This document shows positions 26,627-39,492 of a stretch of 45,356 bases of DNA, in pieces. The stretch is from NCBI GenBank assembly GCA_964195965.1, contig CAXMRF010000005.1, forward strand, positions 1-45,356. The letters run 5' to 3'. A program made the translations under genes and the position numbers. Origin of the DNA: an uncultured Nitrosomonadaceae bacterium (GTDB lineage Bacteria; Chloroflexota; Anaerolineae; Anaerolineales; UBA11858). The notes beneath the pieces were generated by a model. That model did not search any database, was not told the origin of the DNA, and saw only the letters and a program-made list of their open reading frames with translations. Positions within the stretch are counted from its first letter, which is position 1; each line of letters opens with the position of its first letter.

Positions 26627-27502
26627 CTATTGATAGCTGACGGTGCCATTATCATAGATCATCTGCCTCCGCCTGTAAGCCCAGCACATATAGGAAATCG
26701 ACACAAAATAACTTGCTGGAAGCCGGTGCAGATTCTTGATTTTTGTGCCCAGCAGGGTAGTTTTCCCATGGAAACCCATCGGGCCAATATCAAGCTGGTT
26801 CGCCTGGTCTGTGATTTCTTCTTCCAGTGCAGCCAGGGCAAGGTCGGGGTTGGTATCATCCAATTGCCTTCTCAAGACTTCCTTTGAAGCCAAATAAGAT
26901 GAACCCCGATCGCCTCCGATGGCTATACCCAGCGCGCCTGGCGCACAACCTTTCCCCTGGGCTTTGACCACAGCGTCGAGGGTTACTTTTCGGACCCCAT
27001 CCAAATCTCTCCCTGCTGATAGTGAAGTATCTGGCAGTTTATATTGTGTACTGACATTCTCACATCCCCCACCCTTCAGGATTAATTCAATCCCCACTTT
27101 GAGATCATCAATCTCTTCAAAATGAATCGTGGGATAGAATTCATCCCCACTGTTATTCCCGGTATTCTTCCCTGTAAGGGTATTCACAGCATTCGGTCTC
27201 AGATAAGCCTTGTCTGTCGCCTGGATGACGGCATCCTTGATCTGCCGGGTCAATTTCCGGGTGCTCCAACCTTGAGGGTAGGTAACAAAAAACAACGGCG
27301 TTCCTGTATCCTGGCAGATAGGAGTTGAGTTTTCCCGGGCCATTTCAACATTCTGCAAGATGGTATCCAGCGCACCCCGGGCAGCAGAGCCATCAATTTC
27401 CTGCTCTCTTGATTTACGGAGCGTTTCCTCTACATCCGCTGGTAGATCCGTGGACGTTAATCGCACCAATTCCAGGATTTGAGCAGTTAAATCAGGCTGC
27501 AT
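26627..27502 (-). CDS. Fe-S hydro-lyase alpha subunit (class I fumarate hydratase/tartrate dehydratase family)
   Basis: PICQDTG, LRPN, KGGGCEN, GCAP, IGPMG, CWAYRR; start at ATG 27502 after GGAGG. Confidence 0.9.
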   Translation of the reverse strand: MQPDLTAQILELVRLTSTDLPADVEETLRKSREQEIDGSAARGALDTILQNVEMARENSTPICQDTGTPLFFVTYPQGWSTRKLTRQIKDAVIQATDKAYLRPNAVNTLTGKNTGNNSGDEFYPTIHFEEIDDLKVGIELILKGGGCENVSTQYKLPDTSLSAGRDLDGVRKVTLDAVVKAQGKGCAPGALGIAIGGDRGSSYLASKEVLRRQLDDTNPDLALAALEEEITDQANQLDIGPMGFHGKTTLLGTKIKNLHRLPASYFVSISYMCWAYRRRQMIYDNGTVSYQ

Positions 27503-27651
27503 AATTTCCTCCAATTCCGATTTTATTCTAACGTTACCCTATTATAGAATACTCTATCTCAAAACTGGATTACAGTATGAGAAATAATCCAGTGAGGATA
27601 TCTTAAGTCACATCCTCAAAAACGCTCCCGTTCACTTGAAAAATGAAATTA

Positions 27652-27660
27652 TGCTATACT
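27652..27660 (+). promoter_or_regulatory. Extended -10 promoter of the 8-gene operon
   Basis: TGcTATACT 11 nt before ATG 27672. Confidence 0.6.
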
Positions 27661-27671
27661 AAAACTGAGTT

Positions 27672-27926
27672 ATGAAAATTCAAGAAAACAGGGAAAATTG
27701 GATCGAAACGCTGTATAAACTGCGGCTTCAAAACCTCACCGCAACCTTCTTGGAAGCTCTGGGGCCTTTGAATCTGCTTGGTGCCCAGCTGGTATATCTC
27801 AGCCAACCGGTTTTGTCTCCAATTTTCTCTAAAGATCAATCTCAAGACATCGCCAGGATTTTAGAGGACCCCTTAGAAACTGCATCATTTATTAAAGCGC
27901 TTAGAGCTTACGAGCCAACAACCTAA
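27672..27926 (+). CDS. Small hypothetical protein
   Basis: 84 aa amphipathic ORF (LEALGPLNLLGAQLVY) between a promoter and the next gene's GGAGG. Confidence 0.7.
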   Translation: MKIQENRENWIETLYKLRLQNLTATFLEALGPLNLLGAQLVYLSQPVLSPIFSKDQSQDIARILEDPLETASFIKALRAYEPTT

Positions 27927-27941
27927 ACGGAGGAGTATTCT

Positions 27942-28724
27942 GTGTCAGCAACAGGCTTCACAGGGATAGTTGTTTTTGTGCTTTTTATGGGCCTGATGAT
28001 TTTCTTCTCGATCATAAATAAAGATCGGGAGGAAAATAATGTCCGCCCGATTCCCGGCTACGACAAAATTAACCAGGAAATCAACGTTGCTGTTGAAGAT
28101 GGCACCCAATTACACATTTCTCTGGGACGGGGAGGCATCACTGGTCCCGAATCTGCGGCTGCCCTGGCAGGATTAAGCCTCTTAAAACAAGTTATTGAAA
28201 AATCTTCTGTCTGCGACCATCCCCCGGTTGTATCTACCGGAAATGCGGTGATTTCCATCTTGGCCCAGGATACGATCCGGGGATCCTCAAAAGCCATTAG
28301 CGTGGGTGACCAACGAAGAAATCCGTCCGGTGAATTGATTGGTGTTACGCCTTTTTCATATGCAGCAGGTGCGTTAACTACAATTCGTAATGATAATGTC
28401 TCAGCCAATATTCATACTGGATGGTTTGGAAATGAGATCACCTGGCTTACAACTGCCGGAGAAAGGCAAAGCAGTTCGACTATCGCGGGCACTGTCCAAC
28501 TACCTGCCCAGGCGGTGATCTATGCCAGCGCTTCAGATCCCTTAATCGGAGAAGAACTTTTTGCTGGCGGGGCTTACCTGGGGGCAGGGAAGATGCATCA
28601 AGCCAGCATCTCCACCCAGGATATTATCCGCTGGATTATCATCGTTATCATCCTGGGAAGTGTTGTGCTGAACATCCTGGGTATTGACTCATTTATTGAA
28701 GATATCCTGGCAGGATCAATGTGA
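27942..28724 (+). CDS. DUF6754-like membrane protein (TM, alpha/beta domain, TM)
   Basis: RPIPG, AVEDG..LHISLG, G.FG.E, LIGEELFAGGAYL, QDIIR; family recognised from memory. Confidence 0.72.
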   Translation: MSATGFTGIVVFVLFMGLMIFFSIINKDREENNVRPIPGYDKINQEINVAVEDGTQLHISLGRGGITGPESAAALAGLSLLKQVIEKSSVCDHPPVVSTGNAVISILAQDTIRGSSKAISVGDQRRNPSGELIGVTPFSYAAGALTTIRNDNVSANIHTGWFGNEITWLTTAGERQSSSTIAGTVQLPAQAVIYASASDPLIGEELFAGGAYLGAGKMHQASISTQDIIRWIIIVIILGSVVLNILGIDSFIEDILAGSM

Positions 28725-29365
28725 ATATAAAAATCAAATCACCGATTTCTACTGCGATTGCTATTGGGGTTGGAATTGTTGTCCTGGCCGGATATTTTAT
28801 TCCTTCAATGAACGACATCCGCTTCATTTTATTAAGAACCGGTCTGGTTCTGTCTGCGGTGGCCCTTTTAGTGGGCATCATCAATCTTCTAACAGTTCAT
28901 ATCAAGAAATTGGGCGCTGAAAACGCGAACTCCGGTTATAGTTTAATCCTTGTGATCGCCTTGTTGGTCACCCTGGTCGTTGGGATTATTGATATGGTTC
29001 AAACCTATCTGGTCGGTCAGCCAAATTTCCAGATGACCAACTGGGTATTCACTTACATCCAGATGCCCATTGAAACCAGCCTGCTTGCTGTAACTACCGT
29101 CAGCCTGATTTATGCTGCTGCAAGCATCTTGCGTAAAAGAATGGACGTGTTCTCTATTACATTCTTTTTTGTCATATTGCTGGTTCTTTTGGGATCATTC
29201 TCAATACCCCCGGCCACTCTACCTTTCCTGCATGTGATCCGGGATTGGATCCTGCGCGTTCCCGCATTGGGTGGAGCGCGAGGGCTTTTATTGGGTATTG
29301 CTCTGGGAACAATTACAACCGGGATCAGGATCCTCTTGGGAACTGATCGGCCATATAGTGATTAA
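28721..29365 (+). CDS. Hypothetical polytopic membrane protein
   Basis: About 6 TMs; C-terminal VPALGGARGLLLGIALG...RILLG.DRPY; GTGA overlap with the upstream gene. Confidence 0.8.
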   Translation: MNIKIKSPISTAIAIGVGIVVLAGYFIPSMNDIRFILLRTGLVLSAVALLVGIINLLTVHIKKLGAENANSGYSLILVIALLVTLVVGIIDMVQTYLVGQPNFQMTNWVFTYIQMPIETSLLAVTTVSLIYAAASILRKRMDVFSITFFFVILLVLLGSFSIPPATLPFLHVIRDWILRVPALGGARGLLLGIALGTITTGIRILLGTDRPYSD

Positions 29366-29367
29366 TC

Positions 29368-31920
29368 ATGACTGATATTCTTTGCCCAACTTGCGGACGA
29401 CCTAATTCTGAAAATCACAGCAGTTGTGATTTTTGTGGTGGTCCTCTTGGTAGTGAAGATATCACATCAGTTCAAAATTCTTCGTTGCGTGATGATTTGT
29501 TCTCCAATGAAAATCCAAACGAACCTCTGGAGCCGAGAGAGTCAATGGATGAGGCTTCTCGATTAGACAGTTTGTTTTCACCAGATCCCCCTCCTCTAGA
29601 TTCCCAAAAAGAACCCGGGGACCAACCTCCAGAATCCTTGAACGATGTCTCCCGCCTGGATGATCTTATCCCTGCACCAGAATCAACAGAAGCACTCCCG
29701 GAAGAAGAAATCCAAACCGGTGAATCTCTGGATGACTCATCTCTTCGTGACGATATCTTGGGTAGCGACGATCCACTTCAAGAACCCAAACCACAAAACC
29801 ATTTTCCCCTGGATAACCTCTTTCCAGATGATATAAGCGCTCCTGAGCTTCCATCACAAGACCCATTACCAGACTCTCCTCCAGAAGATGACCAACTTCA
29901 GGAAAAGAGCTCAATGGAAACTCCTGGGGAGGACTGGGATTTTTTGACAGAGCCTTCATCCAGTAGTGGTTTACCCCAAGAAAATTCACCCGCTGAAGAA
30001 CCCCAAGGGGATTGGGATTTTCTGACTCCTGATCCTTCATCTGAAGAAACTCCACCTCAAGACCTGGATGATCCAATCCCGGATTTCGGTTCTCCGGGCT
30101 TTTCGGAGGATTCCGGTTGGCTTGATATGCTTCAAGATCCCGAAACCAGAGAGGAATTGGCTTCAGAAACATCATCGGATATTAAGAAGGAAAAAAACCA
30201 AACGGACTGGCTTGATAAAATTAAAAGGCTTGATAAAAGCACCGAACACGTAGATGAAGACTCTTCATTTCCTGATTGGCTCTCTGTTTCAGAAAAACCG
30301 GCAGAAGAGCCCGAGCCTGAACCCACACCTGAACCAGTTCCAGAAATTCAACCCGAACCTGCCTCCTCTGATCTTCCGGCATGGCTCCAGATGGATGGTG
30401 ACGATGAATCACTGAATGAATTCCTGCGGAGAAAAGACCTCACCAATGAGGAATACAAACCCAAGATTAACAAAGAACCCACCGGGGAATTAGTCACCCT
30501 GGAAGACGATGATGAACCGGCTGCGGATCTGAGTGATTCACAACACATTAAATTTCCATCCTGGGCAGGTAACGAAAGTAAAAAGGAAGAAATTCCAGAA
30601 GACCTTCAATTCCTGGCGGGGTACGATCCGGACTCACCTCCCCCAGATGGTGTTGATGCATTGCAAATCGAGGAAGAAGAATATTTTGATGATTTGTTCA
30701 ATGAAGAGCTCCCAGACTGGTTGACCTCAGCTTCATCTGAAGGAGTCATAAAACCGACAAGTGAAGCCTTGAGCCAGGGCGATTTGCCTGGATGGGTTGA
30801 GGCAATGCGTCCTGTAGTCGAGTCATCTGATCTCGCTGAAGAAGAGGACTACATGGAAAATTATGGCCCTCTGGCTGGTATCCCCAGCGTCCTTCCAGCG
30901 GAAGCTGAAATTGCTCTTGATCTGGAAAAAGCCGCCAAAAAACCATTAGATTTGATCACCTCTAAATCCAATCAGGAATATGTCAACTTATTAAAGAAGT
31001 TAATTGGTGAAGAAAATAAAGCAAAAACAATCCTAAGACCTGCCCCAGTACAAACTCAACGGGTCCTGCGCTGGTTGATTGCTATTATCATGCTTGTTAC
31101 AACCGCCGGAACAGTCATCTTTGGCGGAAATATTGAGACTGAACCTCCCACCCAGGCCCAGATACAAAATACAGGGTACGGGGCTCTTTATGACCAAATT
31201 GAAAAGTTGTATGATAGTCAACCAGTCCTGATTGCTTTTGATTACCAACCGGCCGCAGCAGGTGAACTGCATGCCGCAGCTGCTGGTGTTGTTGACCATC
31301 TGATGGAGCAGGGCACATACCTGTCGTTTGTATCCACGCAGCCAACGGGTCCAGCCCTGGCAGAAAATTTCCTGGAAACAACCCAGGAAGCACACCGATA
31401 TCAGCACACCCAGCAATATATCAACCTGGGCTATCTGCCTGGTGAGTCCGCAGGATTATTAAGTTTTGTGATCGCTCCGAAAAAAATCATCCCATTGGCA
31501 TTTGACGGCAGTAATGCCTGGGGATCTCCCCCCCTTGTTAATGTAGACTCGATCAATGATTTCGAGATGATCCTGGTAATTACGGACGATCCTGATATTG
31601 CAAAAATATGGATCGAACAGGTCGGCACCATTTTGGATGACACACCCTTAACGATGGTGGTTAGCGCTCAAGTAGAACCATTGATTCAGCCCTATTTCCG
31701 ATCGTCCCCTCAATTGCTTTCCGGGTATGTTTCAGGGATTATAGACAGTATGATTTACGAACAGATTCTAGGACGGCCTAACCTAGCAACTGAAACTTGG
31801 CTTCCATTTAACCTGGGTATTGTTATTGCTGTTGGAACGATTTTTATTGGCGGATTGGCAAATGGAGTGCTCTCCATATTTTCCAGGCACAGGTCCAAAC
31901 TCATAGGAGATACTAAGTGA
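29368..31920 (+). CDS. Zinc-ribbon protein with long acidic low-complexity region and C-terminal TM-domain-TM module
   Basis: CPTC-x10-CDFC; about 480 aa D/E/P/S-rich region; TMs near aa 570 and 815; YINLGYLPG, PYF..QL..G. Confidence 0.82.
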   Translation: MTDILCPTCGRPNSENHSSCDFCGGPLGSEDITSVQNSSLRDDLFSNENPNEPLEPRESMDEASRLDSLFSPDPPPLDSQKEPGDQPPESLNDVSRLDDLIPAPESTEALPEEEIQTGESLDDSSLRDDILGSDDPLQEPKPQNHFPLDNLFPDDISAPELPSQDPLPDSPPEDDQLQEKSSMETPGEDWDFLTEPSSSSGLPQENSPAEEPQGDWDFLTPDPSSEETPPQDLDDPIPDFGSPGFSEDSGWLDMLQDPETREELASETSSDIKKEKNQTDWLDKIKRLDKSTEHVDEDSSFPDWLSVSEKPAEEPEPEPTPEPVPEIQPEPASSDLPAWLQMDGDDESLNEFLRRKDLTNEEYKPKINKEPTGELVTLEDDDEPAADLSDSQHIKFPSWAGNESKKEEIPEDLQFLAGYDPDSPPPDGVDALQIEEEEYFDDLFNEELPDWLTSASSEGVIKPTSEALSQGDLPGWVEAMRPVVESSDLAEEEDYMENYGPLAGIPSVLPAEAEIALDLEKAAKKPLDLITSKSNQEYVNLLKKLIGEENKAKTILRPAPVQTQRVLRWLIAIIMLVTTAGTVIFGGNIETEPPTQAQIQNTGYGALYDQIEKLYDSQPVLIAFDYQPAAAGELHAAAAGVVDHLMEQGTYLSFVSTQPTGPALAENFLETTQEAHRYQHTQQYINLGYLPGESAGLLSFVIAPKKIIPLAFDGSNAWGSPPLVNVDSINDFEMILVITDDPDIAKIWIEQVGTILDDTPLTMVVSAQVEPLIQPYFRSSPQLLSGYVSGIIDSMIYEQILGRPNLATETWLPFNLGIVIAVGTIFIGGLANGVLSIFSRHRSKLIGDTK
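29539..29760 (+). repeat. Three degenerate ~30-aa coding repeats
   Basis: ESMDEASRLDSLF (29539), ESLNDVSRLDDLI (29632), ESLDDSSLRDDIL (29722); spacing 93 and 90 nt. Confidence 0.7.
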
Positions 31921-32621
31921 ACATGGGCAACCTGTTGGATTTTATTGGACTGGCATTAGGTTTTCTCTTCACTATCCTGATATTTAGCTATTTATTAGGA
32001 GATAATCCTTTTTTCCGGTTGGCGATCCACATATTTATCGGTGTCTCGGCAGCTTACGTTGCCATAATTACGATTAATAATGTGTTGATTCCCCGTATGA
32101 TTATCCCGCTCATTCAAGGCTCCCAGGGAGAACGGTTATTATCCATTTTATTATTCATCCCCAGCCTGTTCCTGTTTCTTAAAGTAACTCCTCTCCGTAA
32201 AGCGGGTAATTGGTCAGTGGCAATCCTGGTTGGGATTGGTGCAGCAGCAGCTATTGGTGGCACTATAACAGGCACATTGTTTCCACAAATACTGGGAACG
32301 ATTAACAGCGTTGATCCCTCAGCATATTCCATCTCTTCTAGCCGATGGGACCAGGCAATTAATGGAATTATTATCGTTCTGGGTACTATTACAACATTGA
32401 TATATTTCCACTTTGGCACCCGGGACAATCCCGGCCACCCCAATGAACGGCAACCGTTTATCGAAAATATTAGCAAAATTGGGAAAATCTTCCTCGCTAT
32501 AACCTTTGGGGCTCTCTATGCCGGAGTTTTACTTTCTTCCCTGGCTGCCCTGGTCGAGCGGCTTTCGTTCTTATGGGAATTCCTGAATAGTATCGGTTTT
32601 CAATTATTTACATCATTTTAG
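31917..32621 (+). CDS. Hypothetical polytopic membrane protein
   Basis: FSYLLGDNPFFRLAIHIFIGVSAAY, YFHF, G..FLAITFGA; about 6 TMs. Confidence 0.8.
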   Translation: MNMGNLLDFIGLALGFLFTILIFSYLLGDNPFFRLAIHIFIGVSAAYVAIITINNVLIPRMIIPLIQGSQGERLLSILLFIPSLFLFLKVTPLRKAGNWSVAILVGIGAAAAIGGTITGTLFPQILGTINSVDPSAYSISSSRWDQAINGIIIVLGTITTLIYFHFGTRDNPGHPNERQPFIENISKIGKIFLAITFGALYAGVLLSSLAALVERLSFLWEFLNSIGFQLFTSF

Positions 32622-32626
32622 GTGAC

Positions 32627-34384
32627 ATGGATACAACTACAGGTTCAGCAAAATCAGTTATAGCAGTAGATATAGGAAGTACCATTACCCGGGTGCAATT
32701 TTATGACGTGGTAAGCGGCAGATACCGTTTCTTGGCTGCTGGATCTGCGCCAACAACCACCGGCGCTCCCACTTTTGATGTCACCGAAGGTATTTGGAGA
32801 GCTCTGGAAGAGCTCCAATATGTCACCGGTAGAAAATTATTAAGTGAGAAGGACGGGGTGATCATACCAAGTACCTCGGACAACCAGGGGGTTGACATAA
32901 TGGTTGCGACCATGTCAGCAGGAAATCCAATCTCTATTGTCGCTGTCGGTTTACTGGATAATGTTTCCCTGCAAAATGCACAGCATCTGGCTCAAACAAC
33001 TTATGGAAAAATCATTGCAGAAATTTCCCTGAATGACCGTCGAACTTCCTCTGAACGGATAAACTTGCTAACCAGTATTCGGCCTGACTTAATCATCATT
33101 ACCGGGGGAACCAACAATGGTGCTTCACACTCTCTGATCAGCATCATGGAAAGCATTGGATTATCTAGTTATTTGCTTGAAGAAAATCAGCGGCCTCATA
33201 TTTTATTCACAGGAAATGAGAAATTACAGCAAGAAGCCAAAGATGGTTTAGGAAAAATTTGCAAACTTCGGATTGCCCCCAATATTCAGCCCATCCTTGG
33301 TAAAGAAAGTATCTATCCTGCTCAAAAAGAGATCAATGAAATTTATATAGATGTGCGAAAAAAACAAACTGGCGGTCTCAGCGAAGCTCTTTCCTGGACA
33401 GAGGGTCAGTTTACATCAACGGCTGCAGCCTTTGGTCGTGTGATACGTTTCCTTAGTGAAAAGTTTGAGCCAGAGAAAGGCGTTCTGGGGGTTGATATCG
33501 GCTCCGATGCTACTGTTCTGGCAGCTTCATTTAACGGTGATGAAACGCTGAGAGTATTTCCTAATCTGGGTGTAGGCTCAGGTTCCTCCGGGGTGCTCGA
33601 AAAATCATCCCTGGAAAAGATAAAGCGCTGGCTTCCCATAGAATTATCTGATCAGGAAATCAGTGACTATATCTACAACAAATCTGCTTATCCAAGTTCA
33701 CTTCCTGTTGAAGTTGAGCACCTTGAAATAGAAATGGCCGTCGCTAAACAAGCTTTGCGCATTGCTGCGGTTCATACAATCCCCGGCTTGCGAAAACAGA
33801 TTGACTCAGGGGGGACATTAATGCCTGCCATGGAGCCTATTATTGGATCCGGAAGAATTTTGACAATGGCGCCAAAACGTTACCAAAGCTTGTCGATCCT
33901 TCTGGATGGACTGCAGCCAACAGGCGTGACAACCTTCGCACTGGATCAAAACGGCTTATTGCCAGGATTGGGAGCAATAGCAGAAATCAATCCCTTATTA
34001 ACCGTTCAGGTGGTTGAATCAAATACTTTACTGAATATAGGCACAATTATTGCACCTACAGGGAATGCCAGGGCTGGAACAACGATACTCCGGGTCCAAA
34101 TCAGTCGGGAAGATGGCAGGTCATTTACCCGAGAGATTAAATACGGATCATTGACTGTTCTTCCAGTGGAGATTGGTGAAAAGGTATCCCTGCATCTTCG
34201 TCCCCTCCATCGTTTTGATGTTGGTATGGGAGGTCCAGGGAAAGCTGGCAAGGTAAATGCCGTTGGCGGCGCATTTGGCATAATTATTGATGCCAGGGGC
34301 CGTCCACTCCAATTTTCTTTTGATCAGGAAAAAAACAGGAAACGAAATGAGGTTTGGAGAAAAACCTACCAAAAATATGAGTGA
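32627..34384 (+). CDS. GlmL/MutL-like ASKHA (actin-fold) ATPase with C-terminal extension
   Basis: AVDIGSTIT (phosphate 1), APTT, MSAG, RPDLIIITGGTNNG, GVDIGSDAT (phosphate 2), GIIIDARGRP. Confidence 0.8.
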   Translation: MDTTTGSAKSVIAVDIGSTITRVQFYDVVSGRYRFLAAGSAPTTTGAPTFDVTEGIWRALEELQYVTGRKLLSEKDGVIIPSTSDNQGVDIMVATMSAGNPISIVAVGLLDNVSLQNAQHLAQTTYGKIIAEISLNDRRTSSERINLLTSIRPDLIIITGGTNNGASHSLISIMESIGLSSYLLEENQRPHILFTGNEKLQQEAKDGLGKICKLRIAPNIQPILGKESIYPAQKEINEIYIDVRKKQTGGLSEALSWTEGQFTSTAAAFGRVIRFLSEKFEPEKGVLGVDIGSDATVLAASFNGDETLRVFPNLGVGSGSSGVLEKSSLEKIKRWLPIELSDQEISDYIYNKSAYPSSLPVEVEHLEIEMAVAKQALRIAAVHTIPGLRKQIDSGGTLMPAMEPIIGSGRILTMAPKRYQSLSILLDGLQPTGVTTFALDQNGLLPGLGAIAEINPLLTVQVVESNTLLNIGTIIAPTGNARAGTTILRVQISREDGRSFTREIKYGSLTVLPVEIGEKVSLHLRPLHRFDVGMGGPGKAGKVNAVGGAFGIIIDARGRPLQFSFDQEKNRKRNEVWRKTYQKYE

Positions 34385-35478
34385 TTTTCAGGCTATCCCC
34401 TGAAAAAGAAGCTATCAAGATGATAAGTAAAGTCAAACACATTCATGCGCTAACAAGTATTAAGCGAGAACGGTTATTACCGGTATCCGGTCATGTACTC
34501 GTCCGGCGCTTGCAAAAAGTCTCTCCGACGGATGTTATTGTAGTCGCGCCTATGGCACCCCAGTTTATTCTTCTGGATATCGCTGCGGGACTTAATGTCC
34601 CTCCCAGCCGGGCGGATGAGCTGCTGCAGCGCGAAACCGGTGAAGAACTGGTCCAGGGTGATGTAATCGCTGGCCCAGTTGGTTTGTTCAAACGGGTCAT
34701 CCGGGCCCCTCAACCGGGAGTCGTGAAAATCGCAGGAGAAGGCAAATTATTATTTGAGATCAACTCCCCTGATTATGAATTACAGGCCGGGATGGAAGGG
34801 ACCATTACAAATATCATTCCAGAGAGAGGCGCAATTATTGAAACCAAGGGGGCGCTTATCCAGGGAGTTTGGGGAAACGGCAAGATTACCTATGGCGTAC
34901 TCCAGCCAGTCAGCAATGAAATGCTGCAGGAACTGGTACCAGAACAGCTTAATATTGGATTCAGGGGCGCAATTATTTCAGCCGGATACTGCAGTAACCC
35001 TGAAGTGTTAACGGTTGCCGGCAATGTTCCGATCAAAGGTTTGATCCTTGGCAGTATGTCTTCTGCGTTAGTTCCCCTCGCAAAATCTGTAGATTATCCT
35101 GTCATGGTCATTGATGGGTTTAGGGAAAAACCCATGAATCGAGCCGCTGAACAAATTTTGATTGCCAATAAAGACAAGAATATTGCTCTGAACGCGCAAA
35201 TTTATGATTCTTATACAGGAAATTTCCCTGAAATTATCATATCCCTATCTGCAGTTTCAGAGCCAGAATTACCTATTGAAACCGAAACACTCAAAGCGGG
35301 TAAAACGGTTATTATAATAAATGGACCCGAAGCCCCTCAAATAGGGAAAATTGATACAATACTTTCTGGGAAACAAATTTTACCAAGTGGTATAAAAACC
35401 CGGGTCGCCGAAGTGAGCTATGGAAGCGAAAAACAAGCAACCATACCACTCATAAACCTGGAAATTATCAATGAGTAA
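34381..35478 (+). CDS. Hypothetical soluble protein with barrel-sandwich-hybrid-like repeats and a C-terminal KOW/SH3-like domain
   Basis: RERLLP..GHVLV, GEELVQGDVIA..IRAPQPGVV, LIQGVWGNG, LKAGKTVIIINGP; start may be 34420. Confidence 0.72.
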   Translation: MIFRLSPEKEAIKMISKVKHIHALTSIKRERLLPVSGHVLVRRLQKVSPTDVIVVAPMAPQFILLDIAAGLNVPPSRADELLQRETGEELVQGDVIAGPVGLFKRVIRAPQPGVVKIAGEGKLLFEINSPDYELQAGMEGTITNIIPERGAIIETKGALIQGVWGNGKITYGVLQPVSNEMLQELVPEQLNIGFRGAIISAGYCSNPEVLTVAGNVPIKGLILGSMSSALVPLAKSVDYPVMVIDGFREKPMNRAAEQILIANKDKNIALNAQIYDSYTGNFPEIIISLSAVSEPELPIETETLKAGKTVIIINGPEAPQIGKIDTILSGKQILPSGIKTRVAEVSYGSEKQATIPLINLEIINE

Positions 35479-35531
35479 ATTATTAACCAATTTACTTCCG
35501 ATCTGACAGGGTAAATTGAGGAGAGAGAACT

Positions 35532-36125
35532 ATGGGCATGTTGAATGATTTTGAAGATCTTGAATTCGAGGACGCAGGTGAAGAAGAGTCCTTAACAACC
35601 AGCAAGGGTTCGAATCGAACCTTCCTGATTGTTGCAGGCGTTTTGGGAGGTATCCTCCTGATTGCGTTGCTGGCTATTGCAGCGTATGCTGTTCTGTATT
35701 TGCCAGGTCGTGATACTGGCCAACAGACTCAGGTCGCGGAAATTAATGCGACCAATACAGCAGTTGCAGAAGAAGCCCAGCTGACGGCAATCGCAAAACA
35801 AGTGACAATGACCCCCACTTTTACTGCAACGCTGCCGCCTACTGAAACACCTACCCTGATCCCCAGCAGCACCTCAACACCAGTGTTGGCGCCAACCAAT
35901 ACGCCGGATCCCGTTGACGATCCATCTGCAACGGAAACTGTTGCCGCATTATTAACCCAACAAGCGGATGGAGGTGGGCTAGATGCAACCCCGGTCCCCA
36001 CGGCAACTGCACTTCCTGACACGGGTTTTGCAGATGAATTTGGCGTTCCAGGACTACTGCTGATTGCAGGTGCATTATTAGTGATAATCATACTCAGCAG
36101 ACGTCTGAGAATCACAACCAGTTAG
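35532..36125 (+). CDS. Thr/Pro-rich surface protein with an N-terminal TM and a C-terminal LPXTG-type sorting signal
   Basis: Acidic N-tail, TM, PT-rich linker, LPDTG plus hydrophobic helix plus RRLR. Confidence 0.8.
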   Translation: MGMLNDFEDLEFEDAGEEESLTTSKGSNRTFLIVAGVLGGILLIALLAIAAYAVLYLPGRDTGQQTQVAEINATNTAVAEEAQLTAIAKQVTMTPTFTATLPPTETPTLIPSSTSTPVLAPTNTPDPVDDPSATETVAALLTQQADGGGLDATPVPTATALPDTGFADEFGVPGLLLIAGALLVIIILSRRLRITTS

Positions 36126-36163: not shown

Positions 36164-36204
36164 AGACAACCACAGCAATATCTCTCTTCTTGCTGTGGTT
36201 GTTT
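36164..36204. terminator. Bidirectional terminator hairpin
   Basis: ACAACCACAGCAA-N11-TTGCTGTGGTTGT with A-run/T-run flanks between convergent genes. Confidence 0.8.
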
Positions 36205-37854: not shown

Positions 37855-39492
37855 ATGGATTCCAAAGCAATTTTTTCCTTCCTGCATGACCATTTTCTCT
37901 TCAAATATCTGAGTGATGACGAACTCGCCCAGATATTGCCTCTATTTAACCCGATCTCCCTGGAAGAAGGCGAAGTCCTCTACCGGGCAGGCTTTCCAAG
38001 CAGGAATTTTTTCCTGGTTGTATCTGGAAAAGTTTTAATTAAGGATGAAACCCATCCAAAAATTCTGATCAATCCCCAGGGGCATTTTGGCGAACAAAAA
38101 TTGCACAAAAATGGCTTTCGGAAAGATACTGCCCTGGCGACAGAAAAAACCACCTTGCTGGCCGTAAATAAACGCGGCTTTTTGGCCATCCTATCAGCCC
38201 ATCCTTCAATCAAAACCAGGTTGTCTGCCATGAAAATGAGCGCAAACATCCTGCAAAAACACGAATTCCCCTGGATTGGCGATGAAGAGGTGGTTCGCTT
38301 CATTGACCGCAAACATATTAATGTACTTTATGTTCAATTGTTACTGCCGATCATTTTCCTGATTCTCTCTACTGTGGGCGCATTTCTTCTCGGTCTAAAT
38401 TTGGGTTTATTTTTAGCGATAACTATTTTTATCTCCAGTTTGTGGGGGATTTGGCTTTGGCTTGACTGGCTAAATGATTTTTACTTGGTCACCAGCGAAA
38501 GGGCAGCCTGGGTAGAAAAAGTGCTCTGGCTCCATGATCAGCGCCGGGAAGTACCACTCCAATCTATCCTGTCTGTGAATATCGCCTCCAACCAGATCCA
38601 GCGCATTTTTGGATATGGAGATGTCATTGTCCGAACTTACACCGGCAATATTCCCATGCGCAATACAGCCCACCCGGAGGTGCTGCTGGATTTAATCGCC
38701 GATGCCCAGGAAACTGCCAAATCCCGGGCCCAGGAAACGGAAAAATATAATATTAACGAGGTCATCCGCAGCCGTTTAGGGTTGGCTGGGGAATCCAATC
38801 CCATGGATGATGAAGAGGATTTTACTGATCTGCAAATGGAAGGCGGCCCCCTGCTCACGGAAACAATCACCCCGATTCAAGAGTTCTTGAATCTCTTTCG
38901 GGCCCGATATGAACTCAACGGAATTATTACCTATCGAAAACACATCTTTATTCTTTTTAAAAATTCCTGGTGGTTGTGGTTATTTTTCATTCTATTGTTA
39001 ATATCCTTTTTTGCTCGAATGGTCCATTTGATACCAATGCCATCCCTGTCCATTTTAGCAATCCTGCTAGGTATTAATGTTCTCGCCCTGGCTTATGCGT
39101 TTGCAGATTGGGCCAATGACCTATTCCAGATCACAGACAAACAAATCATTGACCTGGATCGAAAACCTTTTGGCAGGGAAACCAAACGATCGGCCCTATT
39201 GGAAAATATCCTGAGCCTGGATTACCAAAGAGAAAATATTATCCAAAGGATCTTTGATTATGGTACTGTTGCCATCAACGTTGGAGATATCCAGCTGGAT
39301 TTCGAATATGTCGCCCAACCCATATCCGTCCAAAATGAGATTTTTGAGCGCTATAATGCTGTAATTAAACAAAATGAACTTGCTGAATCAAGGCGTCGGC
39401 GGGACGATATGGTAGAATTTTTAGCGGCTTATCATGAAGAAAGTAATAACGATCCTACGCTGTTGGATGGTGAAGAAACCCAACAGCTTTAA
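37855..39492 (+). CDS. Membrane protein with a cyclic-nucleotide-binding domain and two bacterial PH (bPH_2-like) domains
   Basis: GEVLYRAG..FFLVVSGKV..GHFGE..RKDTA; two repeats W.ND.Y/F.VT/IT..R..L..I.S....QRIF.YG.V each preceded by TMs. Confidence 0.8.
   Translation: MDSKAIFSFLHDHFLFKYLSDDELAQILPLFNPISLEEGEVLYRAGFPSRNFFLVVSGKVLIKDETHPKILINPQGHFGEQKLHKNGFRKDTALATEKTTLLAVNKRGFLAILSAHPSIKTRLSAMKMSANILQKHEFPWIGDEEVVRFIDRKHINVLYVQLLLPIIFLILSTVGAFLLGLNLGLFLAITIFISSLWGIWLWLDWLNDFYLVTSERAAWVEKVLWLHDQRREVPLQSILSVNIASNQIQRIFGYGDVIVRTYTGNIPMRNTAHPEVLLDLIADAQETAKSRAQETEKYNINEVIRSRLGLAGESNPMDDEEDFTDLQMEGGPLLTETITPIQEFLNLFRARYELNGIITYRKHIFILFKNSWWLWLFFILLLISFFARMVHLIPMPSLSILAILLGINVLALAYAFADWANDLFQITDKQIIDLDRKPFGRETKRSALLENILSLDYQRENIIQRIFDYGTVAINVGDIQLDFEYVAQPISVQNEIFERYNAVIKQNELAESRRRRDDMVEFLAAYHEESNNDPTLLDGEETQQL

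Follow-up and report, generated by a model that had tools for sequence, protein, structure and literature searches.

A long-form GlmL-like ATPase in a conserved, membrane-linked gene cassette of Chloroflexota

Introduction

What does an ATPase do that bears the family name of a glutamate mutase helper in a genome where no glutamate mutase gene (glmE) is detected? The question is raised by a block of eight genes, g1 to g8 (Table 1), in a 45,356-nucleotide stretch of DNA (the window), which is contig C5 (CAXMRF010000005.1) of a 2.2-Mb, 92% complete assembly of an uncultured bacterium (GCA_964195965.1) whose closest public relatives are metagenome-assembled genomes of the Anaerolineales (one contig scan, 12 close relatives returned). 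The sixth gene, g6, encodes the ATPase in question, and a reading made from the sequence alone had proposed that the block specifies an undescribed ATP-driven trans-membrane complex whose ATPase carries a misleading family name. From a computational analysis of the block (hereafter the cassette) and its counterparts across the phylum Chloroflexota, we conclude that it is very probably a real, conserved system without relation to B12 mutases. Taken as a whole, it is best explained, at a probability of roughly 45%, as a membrane-associated ATPase machine in which g6 and the protein g7 form a core that is joined by a scaffold and a membrane platform, with no connection to B12 mutases.

Results

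g6 is a long-form ATPase distinct from mutase helpers

The g6 protein matches the Pfam family PF13941 (MutL) with an E-value of 3.4e-65 and 221 bits (cut-off 27), its residues 11-465 covering positions 1-448 of the 450 in the model. Residues 466-585 form an added C-terminal domain of about 120 amino acids that contains the motif IIDARGRPL, such that both the length of 585 residues and the extra domain seen in the sequence-only reading hold. Across 21 g6 sequences, D290, G292, G160, G161, D555, R557, P560 and W577 are invariant. The nucleotide motifs consist of DIGS at residues 15-18, the invariant GG at 160-161, the invariant D290-x-G292 and a nearly invariant G409; they align with the same motifs of a true GlmL, and GlmL and Or-4 have the forms DxGST, GGT(D/N)xG, VDxG and IG(T/S)G in common with g6. 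We take these to be the phosphate-binding and adenosine motifs of the actin-fold (ASKHA) superfamily, and their conservation places g6, as judged from its sequence, among the ASKHA ATPases.

Membership in PF13941 does not make g6 a GlmL. It scores 99.8 bits against the NCBIfam model for GlmL (NF040745; cut-off 475), 66.5 bits against that for Or-4 (NF040744; cut-off 600) and 62.4 bits against TIGR01319 (cut-off 204.05), its 585 residues exceed the size of about 440-480 amino acids, without an added domain, that characterizes GlmL, and it is only 21% identical over 484 residues to a true Chloroflexota GlmL, the nucleotide-binding motifs being common to both. By sequence, g6 is thus a member of the PF13941 domain family that falls outside GlmL proper in every test applied.

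The same separation is seen across the phylum, to which the genome searches were restricted. Of 301 Chloroflexota genomes, 133 have a PF13941 match above its cut-off and 7 a glmE match above its own, and the PF13941 matches fall into two classes, one with E-values below 1e-130 and mostly in open reading frames (ORFs) of about 455-486 amino acids, the other with E-values of about 1e-20 to 1e-79 in ORFs of about 580-850 amino acids. A hidden Markov model (HMM) of the long form gives all 48 long rows 332-750 bits and reaches through their C-terminal domain, whereas the 11 short rows score 108-167 bits and end near model position 455-463, except for one that is truncated at a contig end and stops at 304. 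A quick maximum-likelihood tree built from 50 distinct sequences sets the seven distinct short forms on one side of a branch with a Shimodaira-Hasegawa-like likelihood-ratio support (SH-aLRT) of 100 and a length of 1.55, and the long forms cluster largely by taxonomic family. In the loci examined, short forms (443-483 amino acids) adjoin either a B12-binding protein and MutE or ornithine aminomutase, whereas none of 39 long-form loci has a mutase next to the long form. Whether this ATPase clade tracks a B12 mutase was one of the checks set for the sequence-only reading, and it does not.

The window itself was said to lack a mutase, a B12-binding domain and a cobalamin riboswitch, which our searches confirm: no Rfam family reaches its gathering score in the window, glmE (PF06368) has no match in the whole 92% complete genome, and the B12-binding domains and acyl-CoA mutases of the genome map to contigs other than that of the window (C24, C140, C91 and C157). 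Because g6 scores below the cut-offs, sits in a separate clade and has neither a glmE in its genome nor a mutase beside its relatives, the name "glutamate mutase L" that close homologues carry in public sources is indeed misleading.

Some long forms carry a further feature at their extreme C-terminus. In L044, L045 and L048-L052, and in the long forms of families f19, f35, f56 and f66, the C-terminal extension ends in a basic-aromatic tail, ...K(K/R)RGWF(G/R)RKK (RKGWFGRKK-like). PEWL or PDWL motifs are also present in some g6 extensions. A search for fusions, which is weak evidence, found no longer proteins related to g6 or g7.

The cassette is conserved across the phylum around a smaller core

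Co-occurrence of the genes elsewhere, on which the sequence-only reading depended, is borne out at two depths. In 12 of 12 close loci, every detectable gene occurs in the same order, and in a sample of 20 loci chosen across Chloroflexota and searched by phmmer with the window proteins, gene order is again constant in all 20, with g5 and g6 detected in every locus, g2 in 19, g3 in 18, g4 and g7 in 13 each, g1 in 5 and g8 in 4. Four further loci encode, between g3 and g5, a protein with two transmembrane (TM) segments about 240 residues apart; this count of positional g4 equivalents leaves aside L050, L052 and L053.

The association also holds genome-wide. DUF6754, the family of g2, occurs in 80 of 301 genomes, and for at least 58 of these 80 places the same strand of the same contig also holds a PF13941 place, 2.9-8.4 kb away; 19 other genomes have PF13941 on another contig of a fragmented assembly, and 3 have none. 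Of the 301 genomes, 169 contain a single match each to a g7 profile, and of the 150 places listed at least 79 adjoin a PF13941 place (the other 19 matches stand outside this tally). Both tallies were made by hand from tables, not by script, and are lower bounds because 54 unlisted PF13941 matches were counted as non-adjacent. Among 14 control genomes, DUF6754 is found in none and PF13941 in two archaea, below its cut-off. The cassette is vertically inherited in Chloroflexota.

A smaller unit persists where most of the membrane genes are missing. All seven loci of families f29, f32, f38, f41 and f48, which have no DUF6754, encode g6 followed by g7 without g2, g3 or g5, and in five of these seven a soluble protein of 495-1184 amino acids is encoded directly upstream of g6 (in L065 it is recognized by position only). 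Pfam confirms a zinc ribbon in four of these five soluble proteins. The most conserved unit, as far as gene content and sequence tell, is therefore a zinc-ribbon protein, the ATPase and g7. Several families do without the membrane genes, and what is conserved at the core is a soluble or peripheral module, not a trans-membrane complex; of the earlier proposal of an ATP-driven trans-membrane complex, the membrane linkage stands for the window lineage, but the core itself does not fit it.

g7 is a three-domain protein predicted to bind g6

The AlphaFold2 model of g7 has a mean predicted local distance difference test score (pLDDT) of 85.5 and shows three domains. The N-terminal barrel-sandwich domain resembles RnfC (Z 8.3) and NqrA (Z 7.2). 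The middle, swivelling domain resembles enzyme I of the phosphotransferase system (PTS; 2wqd, Z 11.4, root-mean-square deviation 2.3, 105 residues aligned), as well as rifampin phosphotransferase (Z 10.8) and the aconitase X small subunit (Z 10.3), and the C-terminal domain has the KOW fold (Z about 8) known from NusG/Spt5. These likenesses are faint by sequence: Pfam gives a weak KOW match (16.3 bits, cut-off 22.3), KOW is recognized in 5 of 16 g7 members and RnfC_N in 4 of 16, and a sequence search of solved proteins returns marginal KOW matches (NusG, 5.7e-4) and a weak one to NqrA (E 0.15). The top match of that search, a lysozyme (E 1.3e-07), arises from a Gly/Trp-rich loop and looks spurious. 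Unlike Rnf and Nqr, the cassette has no flavin, NADH or Fe-S modules and none of the Rnf/Nqr membrane subunits. Pfam holds no model for the combination of barrel-sandwich, swivelling and KOW domains, and the family comprises 3733 clusters at 50% identity (E ≤0.001) among 1.84 billion representatives. Alignment with relatives suggests that the true start of g7 may be at 34420.

In 16 g7 sequences, A97, G140, G167, G220, G246, V310 and N359 are invariant, and no His, Cys, Ser or Thr is. The swivelling fold is one that g7 shares with the phosphohistidine domain of PEP-utilising enzymes, but g7 is unlikely to be a phospho-carrier because it has no invariant His that could accept a phosphate.

An interface between subunits of the cassette, which the sequence-only reading would lead one to expect, is predicted for g6 and g7. 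Over three runs their complex model has a median score of 0.89, whereas the highest-scoring of three controls attains 0.02. Of 80 solved complexes, 58 come up to a mark of 0.89, as do 2 of 110 mismatched pairs, a calibration that is only rough because the alignments used here were self-made and shallow (21 and 16 rows). At least 90% of contacts are common to the three runs, the partner pLDDT is 87, and g7 is placed over a large face of g6 (138-160 contacts). The confident part of the interface sets g6 residues 342-366 against the KOW and swivelling domains of g7 and includes the invariant or nearly invariant residues P356 and P360 of g6 and G246, G337, P356 and N359 of g7. On these models, g6 and g7 are predicted to bind each other as tight partners.

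The genes for the two proteins are not always neighbours. In 7 of the 20 phylum-wide loci (families f19, f35, f56 and f66) g7 does not follow g6, and in all five such genomes checked a single g7 copy lies elsewhere. Among three loci of this kind that were examined, the unlinked g7 adjoins a REC-GAF-HisKA-HATPase hybrid kinase in L078 and L080. A REC protein is present in all three: in L079 it is the immediate neighbour of g7 and has a weak Roadblock-like match (MAPKK1_Int, E 0.0014, below cut-off), and in the other two it stands just past the kinase. Separately, genomes of family f40 (e.g., G074, G119, G146 and G197) encode proteins whose match to the g7 profile is confined to its C-terminal two-thirds (about positions 100-350), and no PF13941 is among the matches listed for these four genomes; the f40 protein may be g7-like but work with another partner.

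g4 carries an array of LPDWL-type motifs

The g4 protein joins three unlike parts. Residues 6-27 form a CxxC-x13-CxxC zinc ribbon, which Pfam scores weakly in g4 itself (15.8 bits, cut-off 25) and which passes its own cut-off in an orthologue. It is followed, at residues of about 28-560, by an acidic, proline-rich and disordered part of some 530 residues (20% Asp+Glu, 10% Pro) with six xxW[LVMIF] motifs, and residues 561-850 form a module in which a conserved domain of about 230 residues is flanked by a TM helix on either side. This C-terminal module could be aligned in 18 orthologues, in which E83, W198, Q201 and Y226 are invariant, and has no Pfam or PDB relative; to judge from the topology, its domain probably lies outside the cell. 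It was considered as a paralogue of DUF6754 and rejected (hhalign probability 2.5%, nothing by BLASTP).

In the disordered part of g4 and of its orthologues, almost all Trp residues stand in the context (D/E/A)(L/V/I)P(D/E/A/S)W(L/M)(R/Q/K), and 16 of 19 scaffold orthologues have 6-65 such LPDWL-type copies: 6 in the window protein, 16, 27, 30, 24, 23 and 65 in other TM-anchored forms and 6-14 in the five soluble forms. With a stricter pattern, 52 occurrences are found in the 884,048 residues of open frames of the genome that holds the window, and g4 is the only frame there with three or more copies. Two of the five soluble scaffolds (L065 and L072) end in KRGGWRR[LI], resembling the tails of g6 described above, and such a basic-aromatic tail could serve as a peripheral membrane anchor. 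A literature search on the LPDWL-type motif found nothing relevant among the papers listed.

Membrane and surface proteins

The g2 protein matches DUF6754 (PF20539) with an E-value of 1.6e-26 and 93.5 bits, above the cut-off of 27, and its AlphaFold2 model (pLDDT 88.6, predicted template modelling score 0.81) shows a Rossmann-like domain between two TM helices. This soluble domain has a three-layer alpha/beta fold with a Gly-rich loop after the first strand, and it probably faces the cytoplasm because basic residues follow the first TM helix. Its fold matches are generic (Sir2 at Z 10.8, KtrC at 10.2, KtrA at 10.0, and 209 chains at Z ≥8 in the VIA list), and Foldseek returns no match at E ≤0.001. 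In three other genomes, DUF6754 matches (G274:C6, G290:C24 and G107:C43) span one stop codon each (TAA, TAA and TGA), probably where the match runs over a short g1/g2 or g2/g3 junction, not in a broken gene.

Two polytopic proteins without a family, g3 and g5, are not paralogues by hhalign (probability 1.4%). The invariant residues of g3 are R187, G188, G192 and R203. An assignment of g3 as an ABC-2 permease (PF01061) was rejected: the match reaches 16.9 bits where the cut-off is 26.9, a single one of 20 orthologues shows it, and the cassette has no ABC ATPase. At the start of the cassette, g1 was found by phmmer in the five phylum-wide loci counted above, and 12 loci have a small ORF at the corresponding position that can be aligned with g1; L27 and L77 are invariant in this alignment, P32, Q39 and P46 nearly so.

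The last protein, g8, ends in ALPDTG, a hydrophobic stretch and RRLR. An LPxTG-like motif, a hydrophobic stretch and R-x-L-R are kept in 8 of 8 aligned sequences, in which P162, G165, R190, L192 and R193 are invariant, and the genome has sortase matches on contigs C34 and C57; g8 thus has the sequence features of a sortase substrate. The C57 sortase match (G000:C57:4185-4646) holds an in-frame TAG, which may reflect a pseudogene, a sequencing error or two ORFs.

Locus layout and genomic setting

All eight ORFs lie on the + strand between 27672 and 36125 (Table 1). Those of g2/g3, g4/g5 and g6/g7 overlap by 4 nt at GTG starts, and the remaining gaps are 15, 2, 5 and 53 nt, which agrees with the block of co-directional genes with GTGA overlaps and short gaps (2-53 nt) described before. 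The proteins listed at that time, namely a small protein, a DUF6754-like TM-domain-TM protein, two proteins with about six TM segments, a zinc-ribbon/acidic scaffold, the ATPase, a soluble barrel-sandwich/KOW protein and an LPDTG surface protein, are all recovered here, the barrel-sandwich/KOW protein through its fold model and the surface protein through its putative sorting signal. Their order was slightly off, since g4 in fact lies between the polytopic g3 and g5, and a TM-domain-TM module also forms the C-terminal end of g4.

Table 1. Features of the cassette and its surroundings (positions in the window; in the last three rows, positions for the locus named)
Feature	Position	Strand	Description
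Promoter-like site	27631-27660	+	TTCACT-18-TATACT with TG extension; 12 nt 5' of g1 ATG; weak
g1, small protein	27672-27926	+	84 aa (amino acids); one hydrophobic segment; no Pfam family
g2, DUF6754 (PF20539)	27942-28724	+	260 aa; TM, Rossmann-like alpha/beta domain, TM
g3, polytopic membrane protein	28721-29365	+	214 aa; 5-6 hydrophobic segments; no family
g4, scaffold	29368-31920	+	850 aa; zinc ribbon (putative), disordered acidic part, TM-domain-TM
g5, polytopic membrane protein	31917-32621	+	234 aa; about 6 hydrophobic segments; no family
g6, long-form GlmL-like actin-fold (ASKHA) ATPase	32627-34384	+	585 aa; Pfam PF13941
g7, three-domain adaptor	34381-35478	+	365 aa; barrel-sandwich hybrid, swivelling beta/beta/alpha, KOW (fold model)
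g8, sortase-type surface protein (putative)	35532-36125	+	197 aa; acidic N-tail, TM, Pro/Thr-rich stretch, LPDTG end
Terminator-like hairpin	~36164-36204	.	15 bp; between convergent g8 and phosphoglucomutase genes; A-run and T-rich flanks
Class I fumarate hydratase alpha subunit	26627-27514	-	PF05681, E 1.4e-72; divergent, upstream of cassette
Cyclic-nucleotide-binding protein	37855-39492	+	545 aa; cyclic-nucleotide-binding domain and bPH_2 domain; beyond convergent phosphoglucomutase gene
Unlinked g7 neighbourhood, L078	4291-6947		hybrid kinase, REC protein
Unlinked g7 neighbourhood, L079	5822-6937		REC protein
Unlinked g7 neighbourhood, L080	8327-11214		hybrid kinase, REC protein

The boundaries proposed for the block fared unequally. 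A single promoter is not supported, because sites of the type found upstream of g1 are no more frequent in a consensus scan than in shuffled sequence (19 against 17.2 +/- 3.6). The single terminator is: the hairpin after g8 folds at -23.3 kcal/mol (z -6.6), none of 200 shuffles folds equally well, and in sequence it is terminator-like in both directions; the consensus scan had missed it because its loop is 11 nt long. In one sequencing run, which is only guessed to be RNA, a fraction of 0.27 of the sampled words was present.

The neighbours of the cassette are unrelated housekeeping genes, for a tyrosyl-tRNA synthetase, a formyltransferase, a kynureninase-like enzyme, the class I fumarase alpha subunit, a phosphoglucomutase and the cyclic-nucleotide-binding protein. 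Class I fumarate hydratases can reportedly serve as mesaconase in the methylaspartate pathway, according to one paper on mesaconase (PMC4682846); we take the fumarase beside the cassette as a coincidence because the genome has no glmE.

Discussion

A proposed membrane-associated ATPase machine

No component of the cassette matches a transporter, secretion, cytoskeletal or defence family, the PADLOC models of anti-phage defence yield no family for any of the eight proteins at E-values up to 0.01, and literature searches (supplements not covered) found no paper on DUF6754, PF13941 or its long forms. Since g6 also lies outside GlmL in each test, we regard the cassette as a new kind of system whose components have no studied relative, and its description as undescribed is upheld.

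In the reading that we prefer, the working core would be long-form g6 bound one-to-one to the three-domain adaptor g7. Beside this core is encoded a zinc-ribbon protein, whose long acidic and disordered region is usually rich in LPDWL motifs and which would be tied to the membrane by its own TM-domain-TM module in the window lineage or, in two of the five soluble scaffolds, possibly by a basic-aromatic tail as peripheral anchor. In the window lineage, the core is co-encoded with a membrane platform of g1, g2, g3, g5 and g8. The g6-g7 pair would cycle with ATP in the manner of Hsp70 or of the reactivases of B12 enzymes, the nearest relatives of the fold, and so perform conformational work on partner proteins, while the motif array would concentrate g6-g7 beneath the membrane platform; ATP use in the cytoplasm might thereby be coupled to an envelope process at the outer face, where the outer domain of g4 and g8 would act.

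The chaperone-like mechanism in this scheme is an analogy that we hold tentatively, and we consider it rather less likely than the machine as such. What g6 has in common with Hsp70/DnaK and with the reactivases DdrA/GdrA and EutA is an actin-fold ATPase with an added domain. The large subunit of the reactivases joins the ATPase with a swivelling domain in one chain (SCOP), whereas here the swivelling domain would be supplied by the predicted partner g7. The cassette also differs from these systems in being membrane-linked and in that g6 has no sequence match to any solved member, and neither DdrA nor GdrA appears in the top 50 fold matches to g7.

A broader and more speculative version, in our view less likely than not, would see in the cassette a phylum-wide, undescribed machine in which an Hsp70-like ATPase with an obligate adaptor and a scaffold with up to 65 LPDWL copies serve a step of envelope assembly or signalling together with four new membrane families. 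By analogy, the LPDWL short linear motifs would then form a bacterial counterpart to the multivalent arrays that endocytic adaptors of eukaryotes display.

Several observations weigh against the membrane-associated machine or parts of it. Because several families lack the membrane genes, the link to the membrane may be a secondary trait. Not all scaffolds carry the motif array (L046, L058 and L059 have 0, 1 and 2 copies), and in the four f17 loci g4 measures only 283-298 amino acids and consists of the TM-domain-TM module alone, without zinc ribbon or disordered part. By sequence or profile, g6 has no solved relative, Hsp70 included (the best match, PilM, has an insignificant E of 0.03), and to liken its C-terminal domain to a substrate-binding domain is pure analogy. 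The complex model draws on the shallow, self-made alignments described above, B12-dependent enzymes do occur in the same genome, in the form of two acyl-CoA mutase genes on contigs C140 and C157, and one Atlas row, at 0.95, points to a range outside Chloroflexota, in Fidelibacterota.

Other explanations

The explanation that survives best beside the membrane-associated machine, while still unlikely, is that g6 is a membrane-tethered, polymer-forming actin-like protein with a role in cell shape, septum or filament formation, and that it works like FtsA, like MreB with RodZ, MreC and MreD or like MamK with MamJ, with the scaffold and membrane proteins positioning it. The actin fold of g6 and the insignificant match to PilM, which is its nearest solved sequence, speak for this view, and in outline the partner set resembles MreB/RodZ/MreCD and MamK/MamJ, namely an actin-fold gene accompanied by bitopic or polytopic membrane proteins and by an acidic, repetitive adaptor. 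FtsA carries a membrane-targeting helix, of which the basic-aromatic tail of the long forms in families f19, f35, f56 and f66 is reminiscent. However, Pfam reports no match of g6 to the polymer-forming actin-like families FtsA, MreB, ParM and MamK, the cassette has no family in common with these systems, and the genome already holds its own FtsA and MreB. PF13941 sits on the enzyme and chaperone side of the superfamily, and in the model g7 covers a large face of g6. One paper (PMC5597319) names glutamate mutase as one of the non-polymerising members.

Improbable by our estimate is a channel or transporter made of g3 and g5, for which DUF6754 would act as a tethered, nucleotide-sensing gate of the KTN/RCK type and which g6-g7 would energise or regulate. 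Two conserved polytopic proteins are indeed present, DUF6754 has the three-layer fold and Gly-rich first loop of KtrA/TrkA and resembles KtrC and KtrA in the fold search, and g3 has its one weak ABC-2 match. That match lies well below its cut-off and in a single orthologue, so that the transporter or secretion system suggested by the sequence-only reading finds no further support, and the likeness of DUF6754 to KTN is that of a generic Rossmann domain because the fold list is flat. Unlike KtrA/TrkA, moreover, the DUF6754 domain is anchored in the membrane at both ends and has no K+ transporter subunit beside it; the cassette contains no known transporter family or ABC ATPase, and the g6-g7 pair is kept in families without g2, g3 and g5.

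We give equally little credence to g6 being an ATP-dependent enzyme or kinase of a hydantoinase-like branch, acting on a small molecule or on a lipid-linked envelope precursor with g7 as an accessory. Many kinases and ATP-dependent hydrolases belong to the actin-fold superfamily, in Pfam MutL is related to the hydantoinase branch, and the swivelling fold of g7 is that of phosphotransfer enzymes such as PTS enzyme I and rifampin phosphotransferase; but a phospho-carrier role is unlikely for a protein without invariant His, Cys, Ser or Thr, and no metabolic genes are conserved next to the cassette.

That g6 is the reactivase of a distant B12 enzyme, such as the acyl-CoA mutases on C140 and C157, is very improbable: its PF13941 membership and the B12-binding domains and two acyl-CoA mutase genes of the genome would allow it, but the long forms form a separate clade with an extra domain, adjoin a mutase in 0 of 39 loci and are instead constantly linked to membrane genes or to g7, with which they are paired, and acyl-CoA mutases use G-protein chaperones.

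Significance

Chloroflexota abound in soils, sediments and wastewater, and little is understood of their cell envelope and cell biology. The vertical inheritance of the cassette makes a housekeeping function probable, and its spread is wide, with g7 in 169 and PF13941 above cut-off in 133 of the 301 genomes sampled. The label "glutamate mutase L" would mislead metabolic reconstructions of these organisms toward glutamate fermentation or B12 chemistry. New protein families could be founded on five of the eight proteins, that of g7 alone numbering 3733 clusters. Concrete targets for work on what is probably a housekeeping system of this phylum are the predicted complex of g6 with g7, the C-terminal domain conserved in g6 and the LPDWL arrays.

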